NCBI GenBank assembly: GCA_016432625.1
Contig: CP066697.1
Location: 392,409 to 456,408, forward strand
Origin: Candidatus Berkelbacteria bacterium
GTDB lineage: Bacteria > Patescibacteriota > UBA1384 > 2-12-FULL-50-11
Reading direction: 5' to 3'
DNA length: 64,000 nt
Positions within the stretch are counted from its first letter, which is position 1. Every line of letters starts with the position of its first letter. Positions 1-50,553 of this stretch are shown piece by piece. Under the pieces are notes generated by a model. The model did no database searches and had not been told where the DNA came from. It saw nothing but the letters and a program-made list of their open reading frames with translations. A program made the position numbers and the translations under genes.

Positions 1-1035
1 TCTGACAGGAAGGATCGGGATAGCCGCCCGACGCGATAACGACGCAAACCGCGTAGCCACGTCGCCAGCTCGTCGCAAAGGACTCAACCCCACCCTCGAC
101 CGCCGAGTCGAACAGGTCAAAGAGGTCGCCGTTGTACGATCGAACGTAGGCCTGCGTCTCTGGATCACCGGGCCGGGCGTTACACTCCAAGGTTTTGATG
201 CCGTCCTCAGTGATCATTAGACCGGGGTAAAGACAGCCCACAAAAGGCGCTCCCAGGTCGGCCAGAGCCTTTAGAGCCGGCCCAACAATGCTTGAGCAAA
301 TGGGCTCGAGATCGTTGTACTTAAACCCAGGAACTGGGGTAACGCTACCCATGCCGCCGGTGTTTTCGCCACAGCCGCCTTCGTTGATCGTTTTATAGTC
401 TTTCGAAGGTGGGAAAAGAGTCGCGTGTCGACCATCGCAGATGGCATGAATCGAAACTTCCTCACCAATAAGAAAGTCCTCGACAACCACTGTGTCGCCA
501 GCGTCCCCATGGATTCGCTGGATCATGATCTTATTCAACGCGTCCTCGGCCTGAGCTGTTGTATGGCACGGATAAACTCCTTTGCCAAGCGCCAGGCCGC
601 TCGCTTTCACAACCAATGGCCCATTGCACTCACGAATGTATGAGAGCGCTTGATCGAACTGGCGGAAACTTCTGAAAGAGGCGGTTGGTATCCCCGCAGT
701 CTCCATCAATTGCTTCGCGAAGACTTTGGATGATTCGATTGCGGCTGCTCTCTGGGATGGTCCAAAGATCCGTAGGCCGCGACTCATAAAGACGTCAACG
801 ATCCCAGCCGCTAACGCATTGTCCGGTCCGACGACTGTCAGGCCGATATTGTTCTTCGCCGCAAAAACTGCAAGTTCGTCGATTGACAGGGCCGAGATCG
901 GCACGTTTTGGGCGATTTGGTCGGTGCCGGCGTTGCCGGGCGACACAAAGACTTGATTGACCTTGGGCGATTGACAGAGTTTCCACGCCAGCGCGTGCTC
1001 TCTGCCGCCGCTGCCGACGATTAGGATATTCTGTT
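1..1035 (-). CDS. purD: Phosphoribosylamine--glycine ligase (PurD), 5'-partial at the window edge; TTG start at 1035
   Basis: Manual minus-strand translation gives LKQNILIVGSGGREHALAWKL...PLVVKASGLALGKGV...ECNARPGDPETQ, the ATP-grasp PurD motifs. It is absent from the ORF track because it runs off the window edge. Confidence 0.75.
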
Positions 1036-1143
1036 TCAAGGCTTCCTCCGTTGTTAAGACTGCAACCCAACAACACAGCAACCTTAACGTATTTGTGGAC
1101 CTGGCGCGAGAACATTAGACACCTGTTAGCTTGATGCAACGCT

Positions 1144-1947
1144 CTAGCAGACTGCTTCACTCGCCGACGACTCACTATTATTGCTCAAGTAGGTATTAAG
1201 CTCGTTTAGAGTAGAACACACTTTGTTTTTCGGGGCTTGGTTTTGTCCACCAATCGACCAACCTCCTTCCGTACGTTCTATGTGATGCCATAAGACCTCT
1301 GCGTTCTTTCTCCACACCAAACAAGTCTGAAGCATAGACCCAACAGTCGGGTCTGGATTCTCGGTTATTTCGAAATATACAGTAGTTGCTAAGCTCCTGC
1401 CGAAGCCTCCAGGGTTGTTAACCTCTAGTTTTTCAGCTGGATGCAAACTACTTGCGTCATTTAATGACGCTATCTTATCTCTGTGTATATATGCACCCGA
1501 GCCTATAGAATCCCACTTTCGAGCAAGTGTATAGTTAGCTTCAAATTTCGGCGACCGAAGCGTGACTAGAAATGTTTTGGCCATGCCCGGTATACCATTA
1601 TCGGTAGAGGGGTAGGCCATTAGAATCTGTAAGGATGTGCTGCGTAACTTATCAGGAACGTTCTTTTTCTGCGCCTCCCACACCTCCCTTGCTGTCGAAT
1701 TCCATTTAACAACATATTCTGGATCCCAGCCGCAACCACTAGGAAGATGAGCAAGATAAAGCTTGAGGCTTTCTATCAGGGAGAATCCCAACAAAACATT
1801 TCCAGCAAAACCAGCGACGATACTACCGCTTATTGTATGGAGCTTCTGGAGGCAGTCAAAATAACGACCGTCTCGTAACGAAATGCGTGTATCCGACACA
1901 CCCACCGTGTATCCATACATAGTCGGAGTTGAAACTATCCATGTCAT
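1144..1947 (-). CDS. Proteasome-type N-terminal-nucleophile (Ntn) peptidase, HslV/Anbu-like, with a C-terminal extension
   Basis: N-terminus MT-WIVS...SIVAGFAG and SIGSGAY align with HslV TTIVSV...KVIAGFAG and AIGSGGPY. Thr follows Met, as in catalytic Thr1. 267 aa versus ~176 aa for HslV. Lies in a low-GC islet. Confidence 0.5.
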   Translation of the reverse strand: MTWIVSTPTMYGYTVGVSDTRISLRDGRYFDCLQKLHTISGSIVAGFAGNVLLGFSLIESLKLYLAHLPSGCGWDPEYVVKWNSTAREVWEAQKKNVPDKLRSTSLQILMAYPSTDNGIPGMAKTFLVTLRSPKFEANYTLARKWDSIGSGAYIHRDKIASLNDASSLHPAEKLEVNNPGGFGRSLATTVYFEITENPDPTVGSMLQTCLVWRKNAEVLWHHIERTEGGWSIGGQNQAPKNKVCSTLNELNTYLSNNSESSASEAVC

Positions 1948-2065
1948 CTCTCGCGCAAATGTAGCAACTATAATCAGCGATTACTAATCTGAGTGAGCCT
2001 TTGGTTTATCAATCGAGCTGCTTACATGACCTTTACGACGTGGTTTATAGCTGATCGACACACAA

Positions 2066-2575
2066 TCAAACGCCGTGTTCTTTTAGCAAATTCTTTAAAA
2101 AGCCCAGTGCTTCACTCTCAACTAGCTGCGGAGTGATTTCCTTAAGCGTATACTCGCCCCTTGAACCGGCATGGCCTCCATGTCCTTGTCCAATCGTTGA
2201 TTCATGGGACCAAATCTTCTTCGTTCTCCTATTAACACGGAAGCCAAAGCTTGGAACATCCCTGAAGCCATAATTTGGATCTCGTGGATCTTGAGCCTTT
2301 TTTAGCTCGATTTTCAAAGTAATACTTGGTTCTACGGGTAAGCTCTTAACAGAATCCCAGCCAGGATCGTCCTTTATGATATAGGCCTGGTGACCGCGTC
2401 CTTCAAGCTGCGATTTAAACTTATCCAGTGCCGGTTCGATTACTTCGTCTCTCGCTTGGACAAAATCCTGAATGAATTGATCTTCTTCGCTAACTTGAGC
2501 CTTGATCTCCTCGGCTCTCTGAGAGGTCTTGTCATCGTATTTGTCTAGTAGCTCGTCAAGTGAAGCATTGGCCAT
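2066..2575 (-). CDS. Hypothetical protein (169 aa), second gene of the low-GC islet
   Basis: Clean ORF with no recognisable motif; AT-rich like its neighbour. Confidence 0.45.
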   Translation of the reverse strand: MANASLDELLDKYDDKTSQRAEEIKAQVSEEDQFIQDFVQARDEVIEPALDKFKSQLEGRGHQAYIIKDDPGWDSVKSLPVEPSITLKIELKKAQDPRDPNYGFRDVPSFGFRVNRRTKKIWSHESTIGQGHGGHAGSRGEYTLKEITPQLVESEALGFLKNLLKEHGV

Positions 2576-2754
2576 GTGTGAGTTGTATCTGATTCACGAA
2601 AAACGGTCAAGGGTGTGTCCTAGTAGCTCGAAACCCAACGAGAATCTCACTCTATGTAGAACGCGCTTAATAGGTTGGAAGTGTTTTCCCTTATTGTGGA
2701 CCTGAGGGGAGTCGGACCCCTGATCCCTACAACGCGAATGATGAAATGTGGCTG

Positions 2755-2826
2755 TGGACCAGGCGGGAATTGAACCCGCTACTTCCTCAATGCGAATGAG
2801 GCGTTCTACCGATGAACTACTGGCCC
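2755..2826 (-). tRNA. tRNA-Ala (anticodon CGC)
   Basis: Reverse complement is GGGCCAGTAGTTCATCGGTAGAACGCCTCATTCGCATTGAGGAAGTAGCGGGTTCAATTCCCGCCTGGTCCA. Cloverleaf with G3:U70, a T-loop GGTTCAATTCC and anticodon loop TTCGCAT. CCA is not encoded. Confidence 0.8.
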
Positions 2827-3660: not shown

Positions 3661-3743
3661 GCCGAAGTGGCGGAACGGTATACGCGGAGGTCTCAAAAAC
3701 CTCTGGGAGCAATCCCTTGTGGGTTCAAGTCCCACCTTCGGTA
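3661..3743 (+). tRNA. tRNA-Leu (anticodon CAA), type II with long variable arm
   Basis: GCCGAAGTGGCGGAACGGTA...GAGGTCTCAAAAACCTC...TGGGTTCAAGTCCCACCTTCGGTA. Anticodon loop CTCAAAA, T-loop GGTTCAAGTCC. Confidence 0.8.
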
Positions 3744-3747
3744 CAGC

Positions 3748-4476
3748 ATGCCTATTAAACAAGTTACCTTCAACGAGGAAGACATTCGCAAGATTTTCGA
3801 ATCAGAGACTGCTGGTAAAAAATTCAAGCGCCTTTTTATCCGTACAACGCGCCAGATACTCGCGCTTGGGTTCTTGTTTGTTTTTTTCTTTACCCTTATT
3901 AACTTCGGCGCTTTTTGGACCAAACTAAAGTATTCTATTGCCGCCCCAACCGAAACTACGCAGTCCGTACCAATTGAGCCACCAAAACCCGTTGTTAATT
4001 ACGCTCCGGAGTTAATCATCCCCAGCATCAACATAACTGCTCCGATAGCGTTGAACATCCAGCCTAGCCAGGTTGTAGAGCAATTACGTAACGGAGTCGT
4101 CCATTACGCTGACACCGCGCTTCCAGGCGAGATTGGCAATGCGGTTATCATCGGCCACTCATCTGACTACCCATGGAGTGTCGGAAATTATAAGAATATC
4201 TTTGCCCTTCTAGACAAACTTGTAATCGGGGACAAAATCACCGTTCCTTACGGCTCACAGCGTTTTGTATACGAGGTAACCGAATCCAAAATCGTTAAGC
4301 CATCAGATTTATCGCCGCTTAAGAAAAGTGACGCACCAAAACTGACGCTCATAACCTGCTATCCCGTTGGTACGTCGCAGAAGCGTTTGGTTATTTCCGC
4401 CAAGCTCATTGAAGGCGAGCCAACGGGCTATCAACTATCTGAGCCGTTTTTGGAAGAATTACCGCGCGCCCGTTAG
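3748..4476 (+). CDS. Sortase-family transpeptidase
   Basis: N-terminal TM segment. NAVIIGHSS (His) and the catalytic-Cys motif LTLITCYP (TLxTC). Start set at the first ATG after tRNA-Leu. Confidence 0.7.
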   Translation: MPIKQVTFNEEDIRKIFESETAGKKFKRLFIRTTRQILALGFLFVFFFTLINFGAFWTKLKYSIAAPTETTQSVPIEPPKPVVNYAPELIIPSINITAPIALNIQPSQVVEQLRNGVVHYADTALPGEIGNAVIIGHSSDYPWSVGNYKNIFALLDKLVIGDKITVPYGSQRFVYEVTESKIVKPSDLSPLKKSDAPKLTLITCYPVGTSQKRLVISAKLIEGEPTGYQLSEPFLEELPRAR

Positions 4477-10224: not shown

Positions 10225-12732
10225 ATGAGCAGAGAATTTAACGCTTTTGACAGACTCAGCGAAACGGCTCAGAAAATAATCCACGACTCTGAGGCGATTG
10301 CCCGTTCGATGGATACCGGCATCAATACCGAGCATATTCTCGCGTCGTTGGCGAACAACCCTGGGACAATCTCTTATGATGTCTTGCGAGAGTTGATGAT
10401 CAGCCCGGAGCGGATTTCTTTCGTACTCCATAACCGCAACGCCAACTTAAAACCATCGTACGGCATGTCGCCCGACATAACTCGTATCCTCAAAACCGCA
10501 TTTCAAAAAGCGTATTCATACGGGACTGCCTCCGTCGATACTGAGCACCTATTGCTCGCCATGACCCTAACCAAGGACTGTAACGCTTATCAAGTTTTAA
10601 GTGAGTTAGATATCGATCCAAAGATCCTACGCGACCAGCTAGAGCAGTATTTCGAACAGCTCCGCGCCGGTGAAGAGCAAGGAGCAAGTGAACATGAAGA
10701 AGGCGCTGAGGGAACGACGCCAGAGACTCAACTGCCGCAGTACCCACAAGAACTAACTCGGGGCGGGGGACAGAGCAAGGCGAAAAGTGCCATCGATTAC
10801 TTTACAACCGACCTAACCAAGATGGCCAAGCAGAACAAGCTTGACCCAACAATTGGCCGCGACAAAGAGATGCGACGGATGATTCAAATATTGATTCGCC
10901 GGATGAAAAATAACCCAGTTCTAGTTGGCGAGCCAGGAGTAGGAAAGACCGCGATTGTCGAGGGTTTGGCAACGAGAATCTCCCGAGGCGACGTGCCACA
11001 ACAGCTCTCTGATAAACGAGTTCTGAGTCTCGACTTAGCCTTACTAATTTCTGGTACGACCTATCGGGGCCAATTTGAGGAGAGAGTTAAGAAGCTTGTT
11101 GATGAGATTATTAAAGCCGGCAACGTCATACTCTTCTTAGATGAAATTCATACTATCGTTGGCGCTGGCGCTGCCGAGGGCTCAATGGACCTCGGGACCA
11201 TCTTTAAACCCGCCTTGGCACGCGGCCAACTACGCTTAATTGGCGCTACAACCCTTGATGAGTATCGTAGATATATCGAGAAAGACCCGGCGCTAGAACG
11301 TCGGTTACAACGGGTTGTCGTTGAAGAGCCCTCAGCCGAGGAATCAGTAAGAATACTCGATGGCCTACGCCAAACTTACGAGAAACATCACAGCGTCACG
11401 ATTGATGCCGACGCAATTGCCGCGGCCGTTGAGCTCGGTAAGCGCTACATCAACGATCGTTTCCTGCCCGATAAAGCCATCGACCTGATTGACGAGGCTG
11501 CGGCCGCAACTCAGCTTGAGAGTAATCAGCTGAAAACCTCGAACAAACTCCTTCAACTGGAAGGTGACCGAAAGAAGGCGGTTGATGAGCATAAGCTCGC
11601 CGCGGAGAATTTTGATTACAAAAAAGCCGCCGAATGGCGTGTTCTCGAACTGCGCCTAAATAACGAGATTGAAAAACTAAAAGGCAAACTGCCTAAGCGA
11701 AGTAAGCCCCGCGTCATTACCCGCGAGGATATTGCTCAAATCGTCTCGATGTGGACTGGTATTCCGGTTACCGCTCTTAACCGAGCCGAGAAAATACGCC
11801 TGCATGACCTGGAGAACGCGCTTCGAAAGCATATTATCGGCCAGGATGAGGCGATTCAATCGATAGCTCAAGCGATCAAGCGCTCAGGCGCCGGTGTCGC
11901 CGATCCGAACCGTCCACTGGGCTCGTTTATTTTCTTAGGCCCAACTGGGGTAGGGAAGACTGAGCTAGCTAAAGTGCTGGCACGTGAAGTTTACGGTCGC
12001 GAAGAGGCGCTCGTCAAAATTGATATGAGCGAGTTCATGGAGCGCCATAACGTTTCACGTCTCGTCGGTGCGCCGCCCGGATACGTCGGCTACGAGGATG
12101 CTGGCAAATTAACTGAAACCATCCGTCGCCAGCCATACTCCGTAGTTCTTCTTGATGAGATTGAGAAAGCTCATCCAGATATCTTCAATATGTTGCTACA
12201 GATTATGGAAGACGGCTACCTGACCGACGCCAAGGGTCGCCGCGTCAACTTCCGTAACACAATCATTATCATGACCTCGAATATTGGCATGGCTGAACTT
12301 AACCGACAGGCAGCAATTGGTTTTAAGGTTGGAAAAGAAGCCGATGTTAACGCCCGGTACGAGGAGATAAAGTCGCAGATTAACGACAAGCTAAAAGAGA
12401 ACTTCCGTCCTGAATTTCTTAACCGGCTCGACCGAGTCGTGGTCTTCCGACCGCTTTCCAGCGAAGACGTCAGCAAAATAGTTCAAATCCAAATCGACAA
12501 GCTTTCCAACCGCTTGCTTCCAGAAGGCATCCAGATAGCTGTTGAGGAGTCGGCTCGTGAGTTCCTAGCCGAGAAGGGTTTCGACCCGCAATTTGGTGCT
12601 CGTCACGTTAGAAGGGTTATCACTGAATACATAGAAGATCCGCTTTCCGAGCTGTTACTGAGCGGCAAACTGAACAAAAAGTCGCCGATCCGCGTTTTAC
12701 GTAAAGGCGCAAAATTGACCCTGGTAAAATAA
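10225..12732 (+). CDS. clpC: ATP-dependent Clp protease ATP-binding subunit ClpC (AAA+, two NBDs)
   Basis: Clp_N repeats. Walker [14 protein letters not shown] and [17 protein letters not shown]-like [13 protein letters not shown] ClpP-docking loop (AAIGFKVG). 835 aa. Confidence 0.85.
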
Positions 12733-20677: not shown

Positions 20678-21400
20678 ATGCTTAAGGCACGAGAATTAAC
20701 TGTTTTTGATAAGGCGATTCCTGTTCTCACGAACATAAACTTAGAGATAAAACGTGGCGAAGTAGCGGCGTTTATCGGCCCAAACAACGCTGGCAAGTCG
20801 GCACTTCTTCGGGCACTAGCCGGTGGTTTCGAGCACTACGACGGAGAAATTCGAGTTGGCAGCTACTCTTTGAAGAACAGTGAGAAGGCAAAAACGCAGC
20901 TCGGCTACCTGTCATCTCCAGTTGCCTTCGAGAACTATTTGACTGGACTCGAATGGCTGGAAGTAGTAAGCGCCGCTTATCATTTAGCGCCGCCTAAACG
21001 AATCGAGGCAATTCTAAATTTGGCCGATAAGTTGAACTGCAAAGATAGTCTTTACACCATCTTAGATAGCGCTGATGAGTCAACTAAACAAAAGGTTGGA
21101 CTGATCGCCTCGCTCTTGCATCAGCCGTCAGTTGTACTCTGGGACGAGCCAATAAACAGCCTTGATCCAACGTCCCAACAGGAGGTTTCCGAGTTGGCGC
21201 GGCGGGTGTCGAGTGATGGCGCTGCCGTTTTAATTGCCACCAACAACTTGCCTTGGGCCGAGCGTGTTGCCGAGAGATTTTTCATTATGGATCAGGGTGA
21301 AATTCTATCTGACGGCACTTTATCGCAGCTAAAAAGCCTTTCCCGTGCTGAAGATCGAGATTTATTGACAATTTATAACAGCGTTCTACATGGGCAGTGA
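20678..21400 (+). CDS. ABC transporter ATP-binding protein
   Basis: Walker A GPNNAGKSALL, Walker B VVLWDEP. The signature motif region is degenerate. Confidence 0.8.
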   Translation: MLKARELTVFDKAIPVLTNINLEIKRGEVAAFIGPNNAGKSALLRALAGGFEHYDGEIRVGSYSLKNSEKAKTQLGYLSSPVAFENYLTGLEWLEVVSAAYHLAPPKRIEAILNLADKLNCKDSLYTILDSADESTKQKVGLIASLLHQPSVVLWDEPINSLDPTSQQEVSELARRVSSDGAAVLIATNNLPWAERVAERFFIMDQGEILSDGTLSQLKSLSRAEDRDLLTIYNSVLHGQ

Positions 21401-22775
21401 GAAGATCTTGTGGCGCCTGCACGCTCGTCGGTTTCTACGGAGTTTCAACGAAGAGCCTTTCCCTAGGTTTGTTCTACTTATACTGGTAGCTGCAGCGGCA
21501 GCATTGGTAATGGCGGGATTTTACTATATCGGTGCTTCGGCCGTGGGAGAGGGCAGCACCGCCTTCTTGAGCGTTAACCTGGCGCTACTAATAACGATCG
21601 GCTTCTTTGTTGGTATTACGCCTCTAAGAACCTCGATGGCCATAACGCAGCTCCCTATTAGTCGCCGAGCAATTCAGTGGGACGGCATTATCGGATTGAT
21701 GCGGCTGCCTTTAGTAATCACTTTAGTAATGACAGTCCCATTTTATGTCGGCAGGTCCTCAAACGGTTATTACTCTTTTGTGGAAATTTTACTGTTAATT
21801 TTAAGTATCCTGGTGGTGGCGTTGTCGTGTTATATCGCTGCGAACAGCGCCTCTCAGCTACTAAAAGCCTTAACACACAACAGTTTCGTTCGTTTTATGG
21901 CGATGATAAGTGTTCTAATCCTGATGTTGGAGTTTTTTTCCAGGTCGAACCAAGCCGTGAGCGCCTTAGAGCGGACTTTCAACTCGATTAGCTCGGGGGA
22001 AGCTTTGCTCGTCATACTGGCTTCGGTTGGAATAATCGGCGCTGCTGTTACGGCAATTGAAGCTAGCGAACCAGTAATTACCAAACATCGTCGTTCGCCA
22101 TTTTGGAGTCTTATGACCCACCATCGAAACTTTAACAATATTCCTAGTCTAGGTGAGTCCGTATTTATTAGAGAACTGCTATTTTTCCTTAGAAACGTTA
22201 CAACCCATTTAATAATCGCCGTGATTCTTGTGTTGTTTCTACTCACCCAGGCTTTGGGCGCTAGCTTGTTTAACTCCCCTGTGCTTGGATTCTTGATCTT
22301 GGGTGTGGCGTTAGGTTTGATTAGCTACTTCGTCAGTTTTCCTAGTGGTAGGAGGTTCTATGCGTCAGGGGTGAGGCTATCTCACTTGCCACTTAATCGT
22401 CGGCAGACCTACTGGGGCAGTTTCGCTGCAAGCGGCTTAATTACCGTCCTTCTGGGAGGCGTATTGGCACAACTGGCACTAGAGCAGCTAGAAATGGCTG
22501 GGCCGCTAACTCTGCTCGTACTTGTCTCAATACCGCTGTCACTGCATTGTTTGGCCTTTAACTCTGGAGTAAGAGTCGGAGACCGCAACGACGAACTGAC
22601 ACTACTCGACGAAGGGTTAGGGATAATTCTTATTTTTGCATCGATCGCGTTTGCGCTTGTGTTATTTAGCTTCCTTAACGGCGCTAAGCCCTCAGAAGCC
22701 ATCGCTATCAGTGTCGTTTGGGCGCTAGTTTACTCCTTCGGCGGGTTACTTTTGCTTAAAAACTCTCGAGCTTAA
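21390..22775 (+). CDS. Polytopic membrane protein, probable ABC-2-type permease partner
   Basis: About ten predicted TM segments. Overlaps the ATPase stop. Confidence 0.5.
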   Translation: MGSEKILWRLHARRFLRSFNEEPFPRFVLLILVAAAAALVMAGFYYIGASAVGEGSTAFLSVNLALLITIGFFVGITPLRTSMAITQLPISRRAIQWDGIIGLMRLPLVITLVMTVPFYVGRSSNGYYSFVEILLLILSILVVALSCYIAANSASQLLKALTHNSFVRFMAMISVLILMLEFFSRSNQAVSALERTFNSISSGEALLVILASVGIIGAAVTAIEASEPVITKHRRSPFWSLMTHHRNFNNIPSLGESVFIRELLFFLRNVTTHLIIAVILVLFLLTQALGASLFNSPVLGFLILGVALGLISYFVSFPSGRRFYASGVRLSHLPLNRRQTYWGSFAASGLITVLLGGVLAQLALEQLEMAGPLTLLVLVSIPLSLHCLAFNSGVRVGDRNDELTLLDEGLGIILIFASIAFALVLFSFLNGAKPSEAIAISVVWALVYSFGGLLLLKNSRA

Positions 22776-44868: not shown

Positions 44869-47838
44869 TTATAATTCGTCAATTGGCTGCAGGCCTGAAT
44901 CAGTTGGTTTAGATGTCGCTTTACTCTCGTTCGTCAGGCCTAGGGTCTCGGCTTGATCCCAGGTTATTAAGCGATCTTGGGCACTTTGTTCGATGTCTCC
45001 CCTACTCCAATCATCGCCGCCAGCTTTTTTCTGCTCGCTCTCCCCTATTTCCTGGGCGATGTGCTTCTCGATAATTGGGGCTGTTTCTTCAGCAATAACG
45101 CCTTCGCGAACAGGCGGAGTAACCACAACGTCCCGCACCTGTTCAACTGGTGAGGGGTCGACGTCGTTTTCAACCTGTCCATCAGGTTCATTTTTTAGCT
45201 CACCGCTGCCAGTGACGGCGTACCAATTGCGACTGAAACGGTCTTTTAGAATCTCAATCTTCGAGCCTTTTGGTAGTGACGGCGTCGTCTCTTGCTCGGG
45301 CTTTTTGGCGACATTAGTTGGTTCTGCGTTAGCAAAACCCTTGTCCTGAGGTGTCACATTACCCGGACCGGCCAACGTCACGGTACTACCTTCCCCGGCC
45401 GCCTTGCCAGCTTCAACCGCGCTCAAGTCAATCGGCGCTGACCACTCGGCGATATAATCTTCAACGTCTGTTTTAGACATACTGAATTGCTCGCGGCTGG
45501 ATTCTACCACCTGGCTCACTACGTCCGTTTTATCCGCCGGCGGCGGTAAAGTGTTGGCGGAAAATGCCGGCGCCGTAACGCCGTCGATCGCCATCTTAAT
45601 ATAGATCTGCCTATTTGGTAGATTAACTAAATCGTTGACGTCAAATACCGGCTCAAACTCACTCTTCATTGCCTCGGCGTCGTTCGATCCGACACGGAAC
45701 GAGACCATTGTTCCGACGTTGCCAAAAACCGCATCGCGCACTGTCTCCGGCATCTGAGCGATATATTGGTTGACCATGACAAGATTGAGGCGATACTTGC
45801 GCGCTTCACTGAGGATTGTGGCGAAAGAATCCGTGGCAAAGTTCTGAAACTCATCAACATACAAATAGAAGTCTCGCCGATCGGCCTCGGCAATACGTGT
45901 TCGTCCCATCGCCGCTAACTGAATCTTTGTTACTAACATCGAACCAAGCAAGGCCGAGTTATCCTCGCCGATTTTTCCGGTCGACAAATCCGCCAGTAAA
46001 ATCTTGCCGTTATTCATGACTTCATCCATACGCATTGTTGATTTCGGTTGACCAACAATATTACGGATGGTTGAGCTTGAGAGAAATTGACCGACTTTAT
46101 TTTGAATCGGCGCAATCGCTTCTTGGCGGAATTTTGGTTCGTATTTTTCGTACTCATTAACAAAGAAGTCGCGAATCACCGGGTCCTTCACTTCATTAAT
46201 AACTAAGCGGCGGTAAGAATTATCCGTTAGGATCCGCATCACGCTAAGTAGCGTCGAGTTGGGATACTCGAGCACTGCGAGAATTGAGTTGCGCAGGATG
46301 TATTCAAGACGCGGCCCCCAAGATTCGCCGAAGATTTTTTTGAAGATACCGACGACGCCGGAAGCGATGACGTTCTTCATTTCTGGGTTGTTGTCGAAGT
46401 TCTCCAGGACGTTAAAGCCGACCGGAAACTCGTGATCAGCCGGGTTAAAGTAAACCACGTCGGGGATTCTATCGGCGGGCAAGAAGGCTAATACGTGATC
46501 AATAAGCTCGCCGTGCGGATCAACAACCGCCACGCCTCGCCCTTCCCGGATATCATCGTAAATCATATTCTCGATAAATGTGGATTTTCCTGTACCCGTT
46601 TTACCGATAATGTAAGCATGCAGCCTCCGGTCATGTCGTTTAATGCCGAATTTTGTGATGTTATTACGGAAATTAGTCTGGGCAAGCACTGTTAAGTCGT
46701 CGGCTGGCACGCTACCGAGAACAGGCAAGTTAGAGGGCGGTTCCCCTTTCTTCGCTCCAGCCCAAGCAATGGTTGGCGTCGATACAGTTTCAGAAGGAAA
46801 GTGATAAAGCGTTGCGAGCTCCGTAATGTTGAGAATAATGTCCCTATCCCCCATCGCCCGGTGTTTAAATAGGTCCAGGACGCTGCGGTCGGTAACCATG
46901 TCTTTAACGATGAAGGCGTTTAGATTGAGCGTATTGAACTGCTTATAGGCCCCGACGACTTGTTCTAGCTTGGCTTTAGCAACATGTTCTTCACTAGCCG
47001 CGGCAAGAATACGGACATTAGCCTCGAACCCAAGCTTGGTGATTTTTTCCTCAATCGCTTTTATCGCCTGCTGCTCTGGCCCGCCGAGTTCGTTGTCCTT
47101 CTTGTCTTCCTTCTTTTCCTCCCCGCCCCCCTCGGGCGAGATGATTTGCTTAAAGAAGCCGACAAATAATTCTTTGCTTTCATTTACGAGTAGCTCAGTG
47201 ACACCCTTTGGTTTTTTAGGTGGTTCTTTGAGGTTCTTCACTTCATCACGCCCTAAGTCCTGCCAGTCATCATCAGCAGGACGAACAATGGTTTGGATCC
47301 AAACTTCTTCATCACCCGTTAAGCTGCTTAAGACTCCCGTGGTCGTAGCGAGCGGATCAACTTCGAAGTTAAGAAACGTTTTAATTGGGAAAGCTGTCGG
47401 CCGCTTTAAAGTTAACTCAGTGGCAACGAACCGCTTCTCTTCCGGCAGAGTAACGTAGTCTTCCTCCGGCCCGATTTCTTTGATTTCAATATTAGGGTAT
47501 TGGGCAAAGATCTGACTAACAACAAAATCTTTTAGATTAGCCGGAACGTAGACAAAGAATGTAATGCTCTGCCGGCGCGAGACAATCTCCAGGCTGATAC
47601 GTGGTTGCTCGGTAGCACCCTCCCTAAAAATTCCGTGTAGGGCAGCAAAGAATTGCTCTGCCGCCTCAGGCTTAGCAGTGTTATTCTTAGGTACCGAAAG
47701 TGAGAGTAAGGTATATTCATCGAGACCGCCAGGCCAGCTTTCCTTGGAGCTGCTGCCTTTACTTGTCCGTTTCCAAAGCCATACGGCTCCAACAATCAGT
47801 AAAGCGCTGAAGACAAGATTAATCACCACAAACGTCAT
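44869..47838 (-). CDS. Membrane-anchored P-loop ATPase, TraG/VirD4/TrwB coupling-protein-like (paralog 1, 989 aa) with a long acidic disordered tail
   Basis: N-terminal TM. Walker A HAYIIGKTGTGKST. VAVVDPHGELID and VVYFNPADHEFPVGFNVLE match the coupling-protein DPKGE / fnP..NPL pattern. Walker B FYLYVDEFQNF. Confidence 0.55.
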   Translation of the reverse strand: MTFVVINLVFSALLIVGAVWLWKRTSKGSSSKESWPGGLDEYTLLSLSVPKNNTAKPEAAEQFFAALHGIFREGATEQPRISLEIVSRRQSITFFVYVPANLKDFVVSQIFAQYPNIEIKEIGPEEDYVTLPEEKRFVATELTLKRPTAFPIKTFLNFEVDPLATTTGVLSSLTGDEEVWIQTIVRPADDDWQDLGRDEVKNLKEPPKKPKGVTELLVNESKELFVGFFKQIISPEGGGEEKKEDKKDNELGGPEQQAIKAIEEKITKLGFEANVRILAAASEEHVAKAKLEQVVGAYKQFNTLNLNAFIVKDMVTDRSVLDLFKHRAMGDRDIILNITELATLYHFPSETVSTPTIAWAGAKKGEPPSNLPVLGSVPADDLTVLAQTNFRNNITKFGIKRHDRRLHAYIIGKTGTGKSTFIENMIYDDIREGRGVAVVDPHGELIDHVLAFLPADRIPDVVYFNPADHEFPVGFNVLENFDNNPEMKNVIASGVVGIFKKIFGESWGPRLEYILRNSILAVLEYPNSTLLSVMRILTDNSYRRLVINEVKDPVIRDFFVNEYEKYEPKFRQEAIAPIQNKVGQFLSSSTIRNIVGQPKSTMRMDEVMNNGKILLADLSTGKIGEDNSALLGSMLVTKIQLAAMGRTRIAEADRRDFYLYVDEFQNFATDSFATILSEARKYRLNLVMVNQYIAQMPETVRDAVFGNVGTMVSFRVGSNDAEAMKSEFEPVFDVNDLVNLPNRQIYIKMAIDGVTAPAFSANTLPPPADKTDVVSQVVESSREQFSMSKTDVEDYIAEWSAPIDLSAVEAGKAAGEGSTVTLAGPGNVTPQDKGFANAEPTNVAKKPEQETTPSLPKGSKIEILKDRFSRNWYAVTGSGELKNEPDGQVENDVDPSPVEQVRDVVVTPPVREGVIAEETAPIIEKHIAQEIGESEQKKAGGDDWSRGDIEQSAQDRLITWDQAETLGLTNESKATSKPTDSGLQPIDEL

Positions 47839-50258
47839 CGTGTAGAAAGCGCTCTTGAGGCCGTACCCACACTCTGACTTTCAAAAACTACTGGGGATTT
47901 GGCAAAAGTTGAGCGAGTATTATTGCGGATCCAATCGGCCATTTGTTTACTGCCTTCGTTAGGACTTTTGACACCGTTCATACTAAAGGGTTTGGTTGGT
48001 GCCAAATCAACCAAAAGCTTAACATATGCCTGGAAACGATCAAGGTTGGTAAGGTCTTCTGCGGTGACTCCGGGCAATTCATGCGACAGGAACTCAGCAT
48101 CATCGGCACCAATTCGATAGCTAATCAGGGTGCCGACGTTCCCGATCACAGCGTTACGAATTTGCTCAGTTAGTTGGGCGAAATATTGGTTGGTAATATT
48201 TAAATTAAGTCGGTATTTGCGAGCCTCGGCCAGAATAGTTGCAAATGAGTCGGTCGTGAAATTTTGAAATTCATCAACGTATAAATAGAAGTCTCGTCTT
48301 TGATCCTCTGGCACATCAGCTCTACCGAATGCCGCAACCTGTAATTTAGAGACCAAAATCAGCCCCAGTAAATTAGAGTTAATTTCACCAATTTTGCCCT
48401 TGGCTAAGTTCACAAATAGAATCTTGCCAGAGTCCATCATCTCGCGGAAATTAAATGACGACTCTTTCTGGCCGATGATGTTGCGCATCAGTTCGTTCGT
48501 CATGAACCGACCGAATTTGGAGATAAAGTAGTTATACATTTCCGACTTATGAAAATCGGCCGTTTTGGCTAGTTGCTGTTCCCAGAATGCTTTGACGACA
48601 GGGTCGGTCACTTGCGAGACAGCGTAACTTCGAAAGGCGTCGTCGGTAAACAGCCTAGGAATATCGATTAGTGTTCCGCCGCCGGGCAGGCTCATGACGG
48701 TTAAGGCGGCGTTACGTGCCCAGTGTTCCCATTGTGGTCCAACGATTCCGGTGCGATTTGGGTCGAATAATTTGTAGAAGATTTCGATTACTTCTTGAAT
48801 TAGAAAATCCTTTTCTTCGGGACGTGAGTATTCAAGTAGGTTTAGGCCTAACGGATAAGACGTATCAGACGGGTCGAAAAGTACAACGTCTTTCGCTCGT
48901 TCGGTCGGTACTTTTTTGATCAGTTGCTCAATCGCATCACCCAGCGGGTCAATAAAACATAACCCCTTACCTTGGTACATATCCTGCTCAATCATACTTT
49001 CAAACAAGGTTGTTTTACCGACGCCGGTTTTACCAATCATAAACACGTGGCGCCGCCGATCGTCTTCTTTCAAATGAACCATAGTGGTCGCCCCGCGATA
49101 GTTCGTTTCACCAATTACCACGCCATCACTGGGCAAATCTGCTGGCGGCGGCAGACTTCGCGAGAGTTGCCATTTGACCCCGGGCGTTTCGAGCGCTCTC
49201 GTTGGCAGATGGAAGATACTGGAGAGCTCCTCGGCGTTTAGAATCATTTTTGGAGCGTTGGAAAACATTCGAAATAAATAATCGCGTCCCAGACGATTCG
49301 GCGCGATAATGCGGTACTTCAAGGAGTTAAATTCCGCCGCATGGAATTGGGAGAATGCAGCAATTATGACTTTTAGATTGCTCTCAGCAGACGATTCGTC
49401 CTCAGCGGTAGTCAGCACTCGCAGTATCGCTTCGAAGCCAACCTTAGCGCCCTTTTCCTGCAAGGCCTTAATTAGCTCTTCTTGCTGAGATGAGAGGTGG
49501 ATCTTCTCCCTAACGTCGCCTTGCGGTTTAGCCTGATCGAAGACTAAGCCAATCGCACGGCCGATGCGACTTCGCCCAACAAGATGAGCCCGATTCTGTA
49601 GAACTTCCTGTCCAGCCATGTGTGTATGGTGACGCCAGCGCTCGTTAGTTGGGCGGATCAGGAGTTGGATGCTTGCCGTTTCATCACTCTTCATTTTCGT
49701 TAGGGCGTTTGTCAGCGCCGAAAGCGGATCGGTTTCTAGGTATTGATAGGTCTTTAGCGGCAAGACGAAACTTTTTGACTGTTCAAATACGGCACCCGCC
49801 ACGGCTTTAGCGTGTGGCCCAAAAAGCTTAGGCGGCTTGTTCGAACTTACTTCAGCGTGCGGAAAATAGCTGTGCAGTTGTCGCTCGACTATATTCTTTA
49901 TTCGCTTTGGGCAAACGATCGAAAAATGGATAACACCACCGACCGCTGTTACTTCAAAAGAGATATGCGCCGGTGTACTGAAAAGCCAGTCAACAAAATT
50001 ACGTTGATGGATGATTGTGGTCAACGACGAGTAAAACTGCTCCATTGGGGCGATAAGATCTTTGAAATCTTTTACTGGCTCGCCAGAAACAGGTTGAGTG
50101 GCATCTCGCGGCAACGAGACAGTTAGGCACACCAAAGAATTAACATCTCTAACCATCTCTTGTTTTTGGGCACGTAATAGGTAGAACATCAAGCCAATCG
50201 GTAGCCCGACAACAATAATTCCGATTGCCCAGACCAAGTAGTTACCTAGGAACTCCAT
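47835..50258 (-). CDS. Membrane-anchored P-loop ATPase, TraG/VirD4/TrwB coupling-protein-like (paralog 2, ~807 aa)
   Basis: Same architecture: HVFMIGKTGVGKTT, LCFIDPLGDAIEQ, VVLFDPSDTSYPLGLNLLE, FYLYVDEFQNF. ATGA overlap with paralog 1. Start taken at MEFLGNYLVWAIG. Confidence 0.55.
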   Translation of the reverse strand: MEFLGNYLVWAIGIIVVGLPIGLMFYLLRAQKQEMVRDVNSLVCLTVSLPRDATQPVSGEPVKDFKDLIAPMEQFYSSLTTIIHQRNFVDWLFSTPAHISFEVTAVGGVIHFSIVCPKRIKNIVERQLHSYFPHAEVSSNKPPKLFGPHAKAVAGAVFEQSKSFVLPLKTYQYLETDPLSALTNALTKMKSDETASIQLLIRPTNERWRHHTHMAGQEVLQNRAHLVGRSRIGRAIGLVFDQAKPQGDVREKIHLSSQQEELIKALQEKGAKVGFEAILRVLTTAEDESSAESNLKVIIAAFSQFHAAEFNSLKYRIIAPNRLGRDYLFRMFSNAPKMILNAEELSSIFHLPTRALETPGVKWQLSRSLPPPADLPSDGVVIGETNYRGATTMVHLKEDDRRRHVFMIGKTGVGKTTLFESMIEQDMYQGKGLCFIDPLGDAIEQLIKKVPTERAKDVVLFDPSDTSYPLGLNLLEYSRPEEKDFLIQEVIEIFYKLFDPNRTGIVGPQWEHWARNAALTVMSLPGGGTLIDIPRLFTDDAFRSYAVSQVTDPVVKAFWEQQLAKTADFHKSEMYNYFISKFGRFMTNELMRNIIGQKESSFNFREMMDSGKILFVNLAKGKIGEINSNLLGLILVSKLQVAAFGRADVPEDQRRDFYLYVDEFQNFTTDSFATILAEARKYRLNLNITNQYFAQLTEQIRNAVIGNVGTLISYRIGADDAEFLSHELPGVTAEDLTNLDRFQAYVKLLVDLAPTKPFSMNGVKSPNEGSKQMADWIRNNTRSTFAKSPVVFESQSVGTASRALSTR

Positions 50259-50259
50259 A

Positions 50260-50553
50260 TTAGGCACCGGTATCCATGACCTGCCCAACGCGATCCTCTA
50301 AATCAGACAGGCTTGCTACTGCAATATTGGCGTCGATTTCGTTTTCCAAAAATGGGGTAACAGCCTCAGTATTAACCGTCGGCTCAGGTCCGTCCTTATA
50401 TTCCACACTCCTGGGAGCAGGTCCAACTTCAGCCGGTACGTAACCACTAACAGCTTCAGGCGGCTTTGCTTCGGACACAACAGGCTTAACCTCACCAGGT
50501 GAGAATGATTCATTAGACGTTCTTAACTCAAAGCGTTCCCCCTCGCGCTGCAT
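50260..50553 (-). CDS. Small acidic Pro/Glu-rich protein (97 aa), first gene of the ATPase operon
   Basis: Low-complexity sequence. Abuts the ATPase start. Confidence 0.35.
   Translation of the reverse strand: MQREGERFELRTSNESFSPGEVKPVVSEAKPPEAVSGYVPAEVGPAPRSVEYKDGPEPTVNTEAVTPFLENEIDANIAVASLSDLEDRVGQVMDTGA

Follow-up and report, generated by a model that had tools for sequence, protein, structure and literature searches.

Two adjacent genes at one end of a 64-kb stretch of a Candidatus Berkelbacteria genome were analyzed (the whole stretch is referred to below as the window). One encodes a 267-amino-acid (aa) protein with landmarks of HslV- and proteasome-type peptidases and the other a 169-aa protein; the two genes are on the same strand with 118 nt between them. 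A preliminary description of this DNA had regarded the pair as cargo of a mobile islet in a reduced genome and had suggested a defence or toxin module. Both open reading frames (ORFs) are present as described, and a reduced genome fits a Berkelbacteria host, a member of the candidate phyla radiation (CPR).

1144..1947, minus strand: 267-aa protein, predicted stand-alone proteasome-like (family T1-type) N-terminal-nucleophile (Ntn) hydrolase
2066..2575, minus strand: 169-aa protein, no assigned function; unrelated cargo

The 267-aa protein and its family assignment

The 267-aa protein starts with M-T-W, carries AGFAGN at residues 45-50 and SIGSGA at residues 147-152, and has a C-terminal tail ending in Ala-Val-Cys. 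The candidate catalytic residues are Thr2 (Thr1 once Met is removed), Asp19, Lys35 and Gly49, together with Gly149-Ser150-Gly151. When the protein was used as a single query, nothing significant was found in Pfam, NCBIfam, PADLOC, PHROGs or the PDB sequences, and NCBIfam gave zero matches of any kind at E <= 10. The lack of a significant profile match had been named beforehand as an outcome that would speak against an Ntn hydrolase. The single-sequence Pfam and NCBIfam searches did turn out in this way, but their result was overturned by a profile of the family and by the predicted structure.

A homology search with the 267-aa protein recovered 27 proteins; they range from 217 to 291 aa, and almost all have a length near 265 aa. 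In the 26-sequence alignment from which the family profile was built, G12, D19, D31, C32, Q34, K35, G49, F135, G149 and G151 were invariant and M1-T2-W3 nearly invariant. Against the PDB, this profile found either HslV or a proteasome alpha subunit at each of its top 19 matches (best E 1.8e-4), and the alignment kept the SDiRVT/GDGQVT, DCLQK/..ARK and GFAGS motifs in register. Twelve of the 26 members gave sub-threshold matches to the Pfam Proteasome family (PF00227), the best with E 1.6e-4 and 21.9 bits compared to a cut-off of 22.4. The HslV and Thermoplasma beta sequences used with hhalign were entered by hand; in the alignment of the family with E. coli HslV (P = 9e-4), D19 corresponded to D17, K35 to K33 and GFAG to GFAG. 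Members of the family are annotated as "hypothetical protein" in RefSeq and by JGI, and the JGI label of one of them (P0012) is HslV subunit.

Residue conservation was determined in a set of 170 sequences, consisting of 169 representatives and the window protein. Lys35 and Gly49 were found in all 170 sequences and Asp19 and Gly149 in 169 each. Among sequences with an intact N-terminus, Thr2 was present in 150/151 and Trp3 in 151/151, and 136 of the 169 representatives start with MTW. The Thr1, GFAG and GSG landmarks noticed in the preliminary description are thus real features of a family and not chance resemblances. Several non-catalytic positions were also conserved, namely Asp31 (165/170), Phe135 (163/170), Gln34 (147/170) and Cys32 (131/170). 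At the C-terminus, Ala was found at position -3 in 113 of the 169 representatives, and the last residue was Cys in 76 and Ala in 51 (127/169 together). A link from Cys32 to the C-terminal Cys, as a disulfide or tether, was considered and rejected, since the two did not covary (Fisher p = 0.14, with a trend in the opposite direction). Domain fusion in the longer members of the family (288-357 aa) was likewise ruled out by the absence of any Pfam domain within their extra residues.

A confident AlphaFold2 model of the 267-aa protein (predicted local distance difference test score, pLDDT, 86; predicted template modelling score, pTM, 0.86) gave the beta-subunit topology S1-S10 with H1-H5. This predicted structure contains the alpha-beta-beta-alpha Ntn sandwich, with S1-S10 and H1-H4 arranged as in the proteasome. 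When the model was searched with Foldseek, the top 50 matches were all 20S beta chains, with E values of about 7e-9 and about 225-235 columns aligned. Taken together, the profile matches, the modelled fold and the invariance of the catalytic residues indicate that the Ntn/proteasome assignment is right and that the 267-aa protein is, as predicted from family profile and model, a proteasome/HslV-type Ntn hydrolase.

About 90 extra C-terminal residues had been noted at first sight, with the idea that such an extension might occlude the active site. The protein is indeed about 90 residues longer than HslV, but in the model the extra length is scattered over several elements and does not form a C-terminal extension. 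These elements are a longer H1-H2 linker (residues 67-82); an insertion between H3 (151-161) and H4 (181-196) at about 162-180, which contains a conserved PGG turn and one additional helix (165-175); long S8-S10 beta-hairpins (206-235); helix H5 (247-256), which is also a feature of 20S beta-subunits; and an 11-residue C-terminal tail that is predicted to be disordered (pLDDT <50). As modelled, the extra residues are ordinary beta-subunit elements plus an unstructured tail; there is no added C-terminal domain, and occlusion of the active site by an extension was not borne out.

The exact 267-aa sequence did not occur in a collection of 15 billion proteins. Its sole public copy (P0001, 258 aa, from a Logan assembly) has its start called at Met10, which drops the conserved MTWIV N-terminus (window 1921-1947, minus strand), so that the catalytic Thr is lost from P0001. 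About 19 of the 169 family representatives likewise lack the conserved N-terminus and start with MFG, MPT and similar sequences. Gene callers that pick Met10 remove the catalytic threonine, and this is a problem of annotation.

The state of the gene bears on the possibility that it has lost its function and is decaying as a passenger of a defunct integrative element. The islet has no integrase and only 1.6 kb of it is left, and a frameshifted pseudogene of the family is known in a Bryobacterales genome (L042). However, the ORF in the window is of full length (267 aa compared to a family median of 265 aa), the protein ends with the family A-x-C motif, and it keeps all near-invariant residues except one, a Tyr to His change at position 155 that is common to 7 of the 170 sequences. 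We consider decay highly improbable.

Distribution of the family and its gene neighbourhoods

An exhaustive profile search over 1.84 billion cluster representatives (clusters at 50% identity) found 1,035 proteins at E <= 1e-3, of which 346 also passed E <= 1e-30; almost all were 255-290 aa long and matched from residue 1. The peptidase family spans more than 10 phyla, and its sources include Acidobacteriota, Anaerolineae, Omnitrophota, Verrucomicrobiota, Actinomycetes, Desulfobacterota, Myxococcota, Bdellovibrionia, Rokubacteria and others. A degenerate DNA pattern for MTW[IV]...DCLQK located 50 genomic loci, 42 of which held true members.

Gene neighbourhoods were surveyed with 131 ORFs lying within 1.3 kb of about 43 non-redundant loci, using blastp clustering and batch Pfam and PADLOC scans. 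No recurrent partner was found in this survey, as each Pfam or PADLOC family was present in at most 2 of the 131 flanking ORFs. The neighbours included AdoMet synthetase, GroEL, NADH dehydrogenase subunits and ribosomal protein S1, while integrases or restriction genes were only occasional. The contexts that were inspected singly were all different: after an alpha-2-macroglobulin gene, in a nuo operon, near PIN-TPR-GreABC and an integrase, near HEPN_AbiV, near a Ser/Thr kinase and near DnaG. Each locus has one family gene. Neighbouring genes whose products have a similar length (about 255-268 aa) proved not to be paralogs, and no second proteasome-like gene was present in any locus. In a Bryobacterales metagenome-assembled genome (MAG), the family gene (L042 5261-6192) is broken over three reading frames, either as a frameshifted pseudogene or by an assembly error.

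The preliminary description had stated that the peptidase has no HslU partner, and this was confirmed. In the window, neither hslU nor any other AAA+ gene is adjacent to the 267-aa gene. The sole AAA+ unfoldase among the window ORFs scanned is encoded by a ClpB/ClpC-type double-AAA+ gene at 10225-12732 on the plus strand (Clp_N, AAA, AAA_2 and ClpB_D2-small domains), which lies 8 kb from the peptidase gene, and nothing connects the two. No AAA+ family recurred among the 131 neighbours, and hslU was adjacent to the peptidase gene in no locus examined.

Some members were found on mobile DNA. A true member, annotated as hypothetical, lies beside an IS3 element on the Vibrio coralliilyticus plasmid p337, and another adjoins tail-fibre genes on one IMG/VR contig. 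No family match was found in 50,697 deposited phage genomes; with this result and the single IMG/VR contig, a phage origin of the family was rejected. The family thus represents an accessory enzyme that is encoded by a single gene, has a patchy distribution and moves horizontally; it has no unfoldase and no dedicated partner, and a link to defence systems could not be demonstrated.

In one lineage only, a family gene (P0021; L003/L004 1938-8783) is located 30 nt downstream of a gene for a 2,010-aa bacterial alpha-2-macroglobulin, on the same strand. Since alpha-2-macroglobulin is a protease inhibitor, its position beside a protease homolog is suggestive of a pairing.

The 169-aa protein also gave nothing significant as a single query in Pfam, NCBIfam, PADLOC, PHROGs or the PDB. 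The same sequence has been deposited as a hypothetical protein from a Candidatus Berkelbacteria MAG. The family of the 169-aa protein (loci L006 and L066-L069) has five members, that is, four relatives; the identified members are all from the CPR and one source is named, Candidatus Shapirobacteria. In the predicted fold, an antiparallel sheet is preceded by a long N-terminal helix and followed by a C-terminal helix, and an invariant Gly/His-rich loop, HESTIGxGHGGH...R, is disordered in the AlphaFold model. One relative comes after an AAA_15/AAA_21 ATPase and an unannotated 179-aa gene, with no peptidase following it. Another is 2 nt downstream of an N6_N4 methyltransferase and a BsaWI-type endonuclease, with a Gp49/HTH pair nearby. 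The 169-aa protein may be a defence-associated or anti-defence accessory protein. Between the 169-aa and 267-aa genes, motif counts for a promoter or terminator were no higher than in shuffled controls.

The 169-aa protein had been taken for a possible partner of the peptidase, with a survey of the pair across genomes as the check. It is the neighbour in this genome, but the pairing was found nowhere else. No 169-aa homolog was present in any of the 48 loci holding a peptidase-family gene, nor at any of the approximately 43 non-redundant loci of the survey, and no peptidase was found beside the four other members of the 169-aa family. The 169-aa protein is an independent cargo that is a neighbour in this genome only and is not a partner of the peptidase. 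These counts bear directly on the suggestion that the two proteins constitute a two-gene defence or toxin (toxin/immunity) module. The genes are adjacent, on the same strand, close together and on a mobile islet; relatives of the 169-aa protein stand beside the AAA_15/21 ATPase or beside a restriction-modification pair that has a Gp49/HTH toxin-antitoxin in its vicinity, and some peptidase relatives are near PIN-TPR-GreABC with an integrase or near HEPN_AbiV. The fold class of the 169-aa protein takes in immunity proteins and anti-CRISPRs, but at low Z only. However, PADLOC matched neither protein, and the surroundings of the peptidase family consist largely of housekeeping genes, without any recurring defence family. 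A defence or toxin role is unsupported by these results, and we regard such a module as very unlikely. The supposed two-gene module is thereby removed as a false lead.

The islet at tRNA-Ala(CGC)

The two genes lie in a segment that starts directly downstream of the 3' end of a tRNA-Ala(CGC) gene and is bounded on its other side by purD. The features that define the segment are as follows.

2754..2826, minus strand: tRNA-Ala(CGC), presumed integration target (ARAGORN; Rfam 66.3 bits)
2694..2745, minus strand: proximal att-like repeat, a partial tRNA-Ala duplicate from the anticodon loop to the 3' end (alignment TCATTCGCgTTG...CAGGTCCACAA)
1093..1110, minus strand: distal att-like repeat, with the exact 11-mer TTGTGGACCTG common to it and the proximal copy
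1..1039, minus strand: purD (GARS_N and GARS_A domains), backbone gene bounding the islet and cut off by the left edge of the window

Three copies of an 18-nt sequence were found, one belonging to the tRNA-Ala 3' end (2752-2769) and the others at 2694-2711 and 1093-1110. The middle copy grows into a tRNA duplicate of about 50 nt, located 9 nt downstream of the adjacent tRNA-Ala and about 70% identical to it, while the distal copy sits in the 103-nt gap between purD and the stop codon of the peptidase gene. The 11-mer has only two exact copies in the 64 kb; with one mismatch allowed, 5 matches were found compared to 0.73 expected by chance. Since the repeat is present in three copies, at least two successive integrations at tRNA-Ala(CGC) are suggested. 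The 1.6 kb between the repeats has a GC content of 45.2% compared to 49.4% for the window, which places it at the 4.6th percentile.

To the right of tRNA-Ala are Sua5/YrdC, tRNA-Leu, a sortase, a PEGA protein and MreB. The closest relative available (L070; Sua5 61% and MreB 79% identical) keeps the order tRNA-Ala(cgc)-Sua5-tRNA-Leu-sortase-PEGA-MreB-GT; its tRNA-Ala is followed downstream by pgi, enolase and iPGM, and both cargo genes are absent at its syntenic tRNA-Ala. With tRNA-derived repeats flanking the pair, low GC content and the absence of both genes from the relative, the earlier view of the genes as islet cargo holds. The most fitting explanation of the 1.6-kb segment is that it was left behind by an element that had inserted at tRNA-Ala. 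In the same relative, a serine recombinase (Resolvase, Recombinase and zinc ribbon, split into two ORFs; L070 1205-2944) lies beside a second tRNA-Ala(GGC), which points to a separate integration hotspot there.

Considering the protein and its locus together, the 267-aa gene probably encodes, as judged from sequence and model, an active stand-alone proteasome-like Ntn hydrolase of a widespread, unnamed family of about 265 aa, acquired horizontally on a tRNA-linked remnant. In such an enzyme there would be no propeptide, and removal of the initiator Met would expose Thr2 as the N-terminal nucleophile. Asp19 and Lys35 would complete a proteasome-type triad, Gly49 would provide the oxyanion hole and the Gly149-Ser150-Gly151 turn would support the active site. 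Peptide (amide) bonds would presumably be hydrolysed, and no dedicated ATPase would be involved. As the H3/H4 insertion is predicted to lie at the usual ring-ring interface, it argues against a canonical double ring; H3/H4 insertions at this interface could prevent double rings (PMC8665760). The gene would have arrived in Candidatus Berkelbacteria by horizontal transfer, on the 1.6-kb element remnant at tRNA-Ala(CGC) and together with the unrelated 169-aa cargo.

Several observations weigh against this explanation. The resemblance to characterised proteasome homologs is weak, with empty single-sequence searches and profile E values of only about 1e-4, and the evidence for the fold is a predicted structure. 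A generic peptidase model does not account for the A-x-Cys/Ala C-terminus or for Trp3, Asp31, Cys32 and Gln34. As to the locus, the att-like repeat is short, with an exact core of 11 nt and 15/18 positions overall, and no integrase or recombinase was found among the two ORFs between the repeats, so that the segment would be the remnant of an integrated element. The left backbone also differs between the two genomes (purD in the window, pgi-eno-pgm in L070), and L070 is therefore supportive and not a clean empty-site proof.

Three further features of the window were recorded. The sortase ORF at 3667-4476, with a GTG start at 3667, overlaps tRNA-Leu(CAA) at 3661-3744 on the same strand, and the true start is probably a downstream Met (MPIKQV...) just after the tRNA-Leu. 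Two adjacent large genes at 44869-50288 on the minus strand (989 and 817 aa) gave weak matches to the domains TrwB_AAD_bind, TraG-D_C and T4SS-DNA_transf, which are found in coupling proteins of type IV secretion. They may be part of the type IV secretion system described for Patescibacteria (PMC12102498) or of another mobile element. An ORF of 461 aa at 21390-22775 on the plus strand has no Pfam match at E <= 1e-5.

Comparison with known proteasome-type systems

HslV (ClpQ) is a compact protein of about 175 aa without H5; its gene accompanies that of the AAA+ protein HslU, which activates it. Among characterised families, HslV gave the best sequence-level matches to the 267-aa family. In both, Thr1 would be exposed right after the initiator Met, and the Asp17/Lys33 equivalents, GFAG and GSG align. 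Unlike HslV, the 267-aa protein has an H3/H4 insertion, helix H5 and a tail in its model, no hslU stands beside the peptidase-family genes in the loci examined, and the curated HslV models of NCBIfam were unmatched at E <= 10. The 20S beta-subunits (PF00227; Mycobacterium PrcB and the archaeal and eukaryotic beta subunits) have helix H5 in common with the 267-aa model. The 267-aa protein differs from them in having no propeptide and no alpha-subunit gene nearby, in PF00227 scores that are under the gathering threshold, and in an identity of about 11-16%.

BPH is a compact protein of about 185-200 aa. The Anbu gene shares a conserved operon with genes for ATP-grasp, alpha-E and transglutaminase-like proteins (PMC5666114), whereas none of these three is among the 25 Pfam families most often seen in the 131 peptidase neighbours. 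Neither Anbu nor BPH was among the PDB matches of the family profile at E <= 10.

Connectase, an archaeal protein ligase, is restricted to methanogens. It shares with the 267-aa protein a proteasome-like Ntn core, Thr1, extra C-terminal residues and the lack of an unfoldase. It has no helices H1/H2 and carries a two-helix S3/S4 lid (PMC8665760), whereas the 267-aa model has both H1 and H2 and no S3/S4 insertion.

Rather than a bulk peptidase, the 267-aa protein could be a sequence-specific processing enzyme or transpeptidase of the Connectase kind, possibly monomeric, in which the invariant residues and the C-terminal tail would set specificity or self-regulation. Connectase itself is the precedent for a proteasome homolog acting as a specific ligase (PMC7980362). 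Conservation in the family is strong beyond the catalytic set (Trp3, Asp31, Cys32, Gln34, Phe135 and the extreme C-terminus), the predicted model places the H3/H4 insertion at the ring-ring interface, and no unfoldase partner was found. On the other hand, the survey revealed no conserved neighbouring gene for a substrate, and the C-terminal tail is predicted to be disordered (pLDDT <50). Such a role is a live alternative, since neither the invariant residues peculiar to the family nor its conserved C-terminus has an explanation, although we consider it unlikely. The whole family of about 1,000 clusters might also be a functionally distinct, self-contained proteasome-like enzyme that is spread by mobile elements (islets, plasmids and a cargo slot in phage tail modules) and used in element-host conflict, with a specific activity or built-in regulation that HslV, Anbu and BPH do not show and that would arise from Trp3, from Asp31-Cys32-x-Gln34 beside the catalytic Lys and from Ala-x-Cys/Ala-COOH. 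For example, the tail would then dock in the active site or in an inter-subunit pocket, replacing the C-terminus of an activator, or it would act as a C-degron, or the enzyme would carry out Connectase-like transpeptidation. This view appears decidedly unlikely to us.

With the stand-alone peptidase as the preferred explanation, the family is also of practical use. It offers experimentalists a coherent set of proteins of about 265 aa with an unprocessed Thr1 N-terminus, a DCLQK motif and a conserved A-x-Cys/Ala C-terminus. As there is no partner gene, a single gene should be enough for tests of expression and activity. The locus would further indicate that horizontal acquisition of a stand-alone proteasome homolog is possible even for a very small genome.

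Fuchs, Alva & Lupas 2021 (PMC8665760) described 22 uncharacterised clusters of proteasome homologs in addition to HslV, Anbu, BPH and Connectase. Those named PMI, for "proteasome homolog with multiple insertions", have published representatives such as WP_115649681.1, WP_137109689.1, OGZ26396.1 and HDY66466.1, and the H3/H4 insertion is present in PMI-2 to PMI-6 (PMC8665760). Like the 267-aa family, the PMI proteins are predicted Thr1/Asp17/Lys33/Gly47 enzymes with no propeptide and no known function, and they have a patchy, broad distribution that occasionally includes phages. The H3/H4 insertion is also found in the 267-aa model, which is a resemblance of architecture only. The long pore-loop insertion of PMI-3 and PMI-4 and the S3/S4 insertion of PMI-5 and PMI-6 are both missing from the model. 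By elimination, and compared by architecture only, the 267-aa family as modelled most resembles PMI-1 or PMI-2, or a further cluster. If active, the Berkelbacteria protein would bring a CPR example into the recently recognised pool of stand-alone proteasome homologs without known function. The window protein is a CPR addition to a known, uncharacterised kind of proteasome homolog and not a new kind of system.

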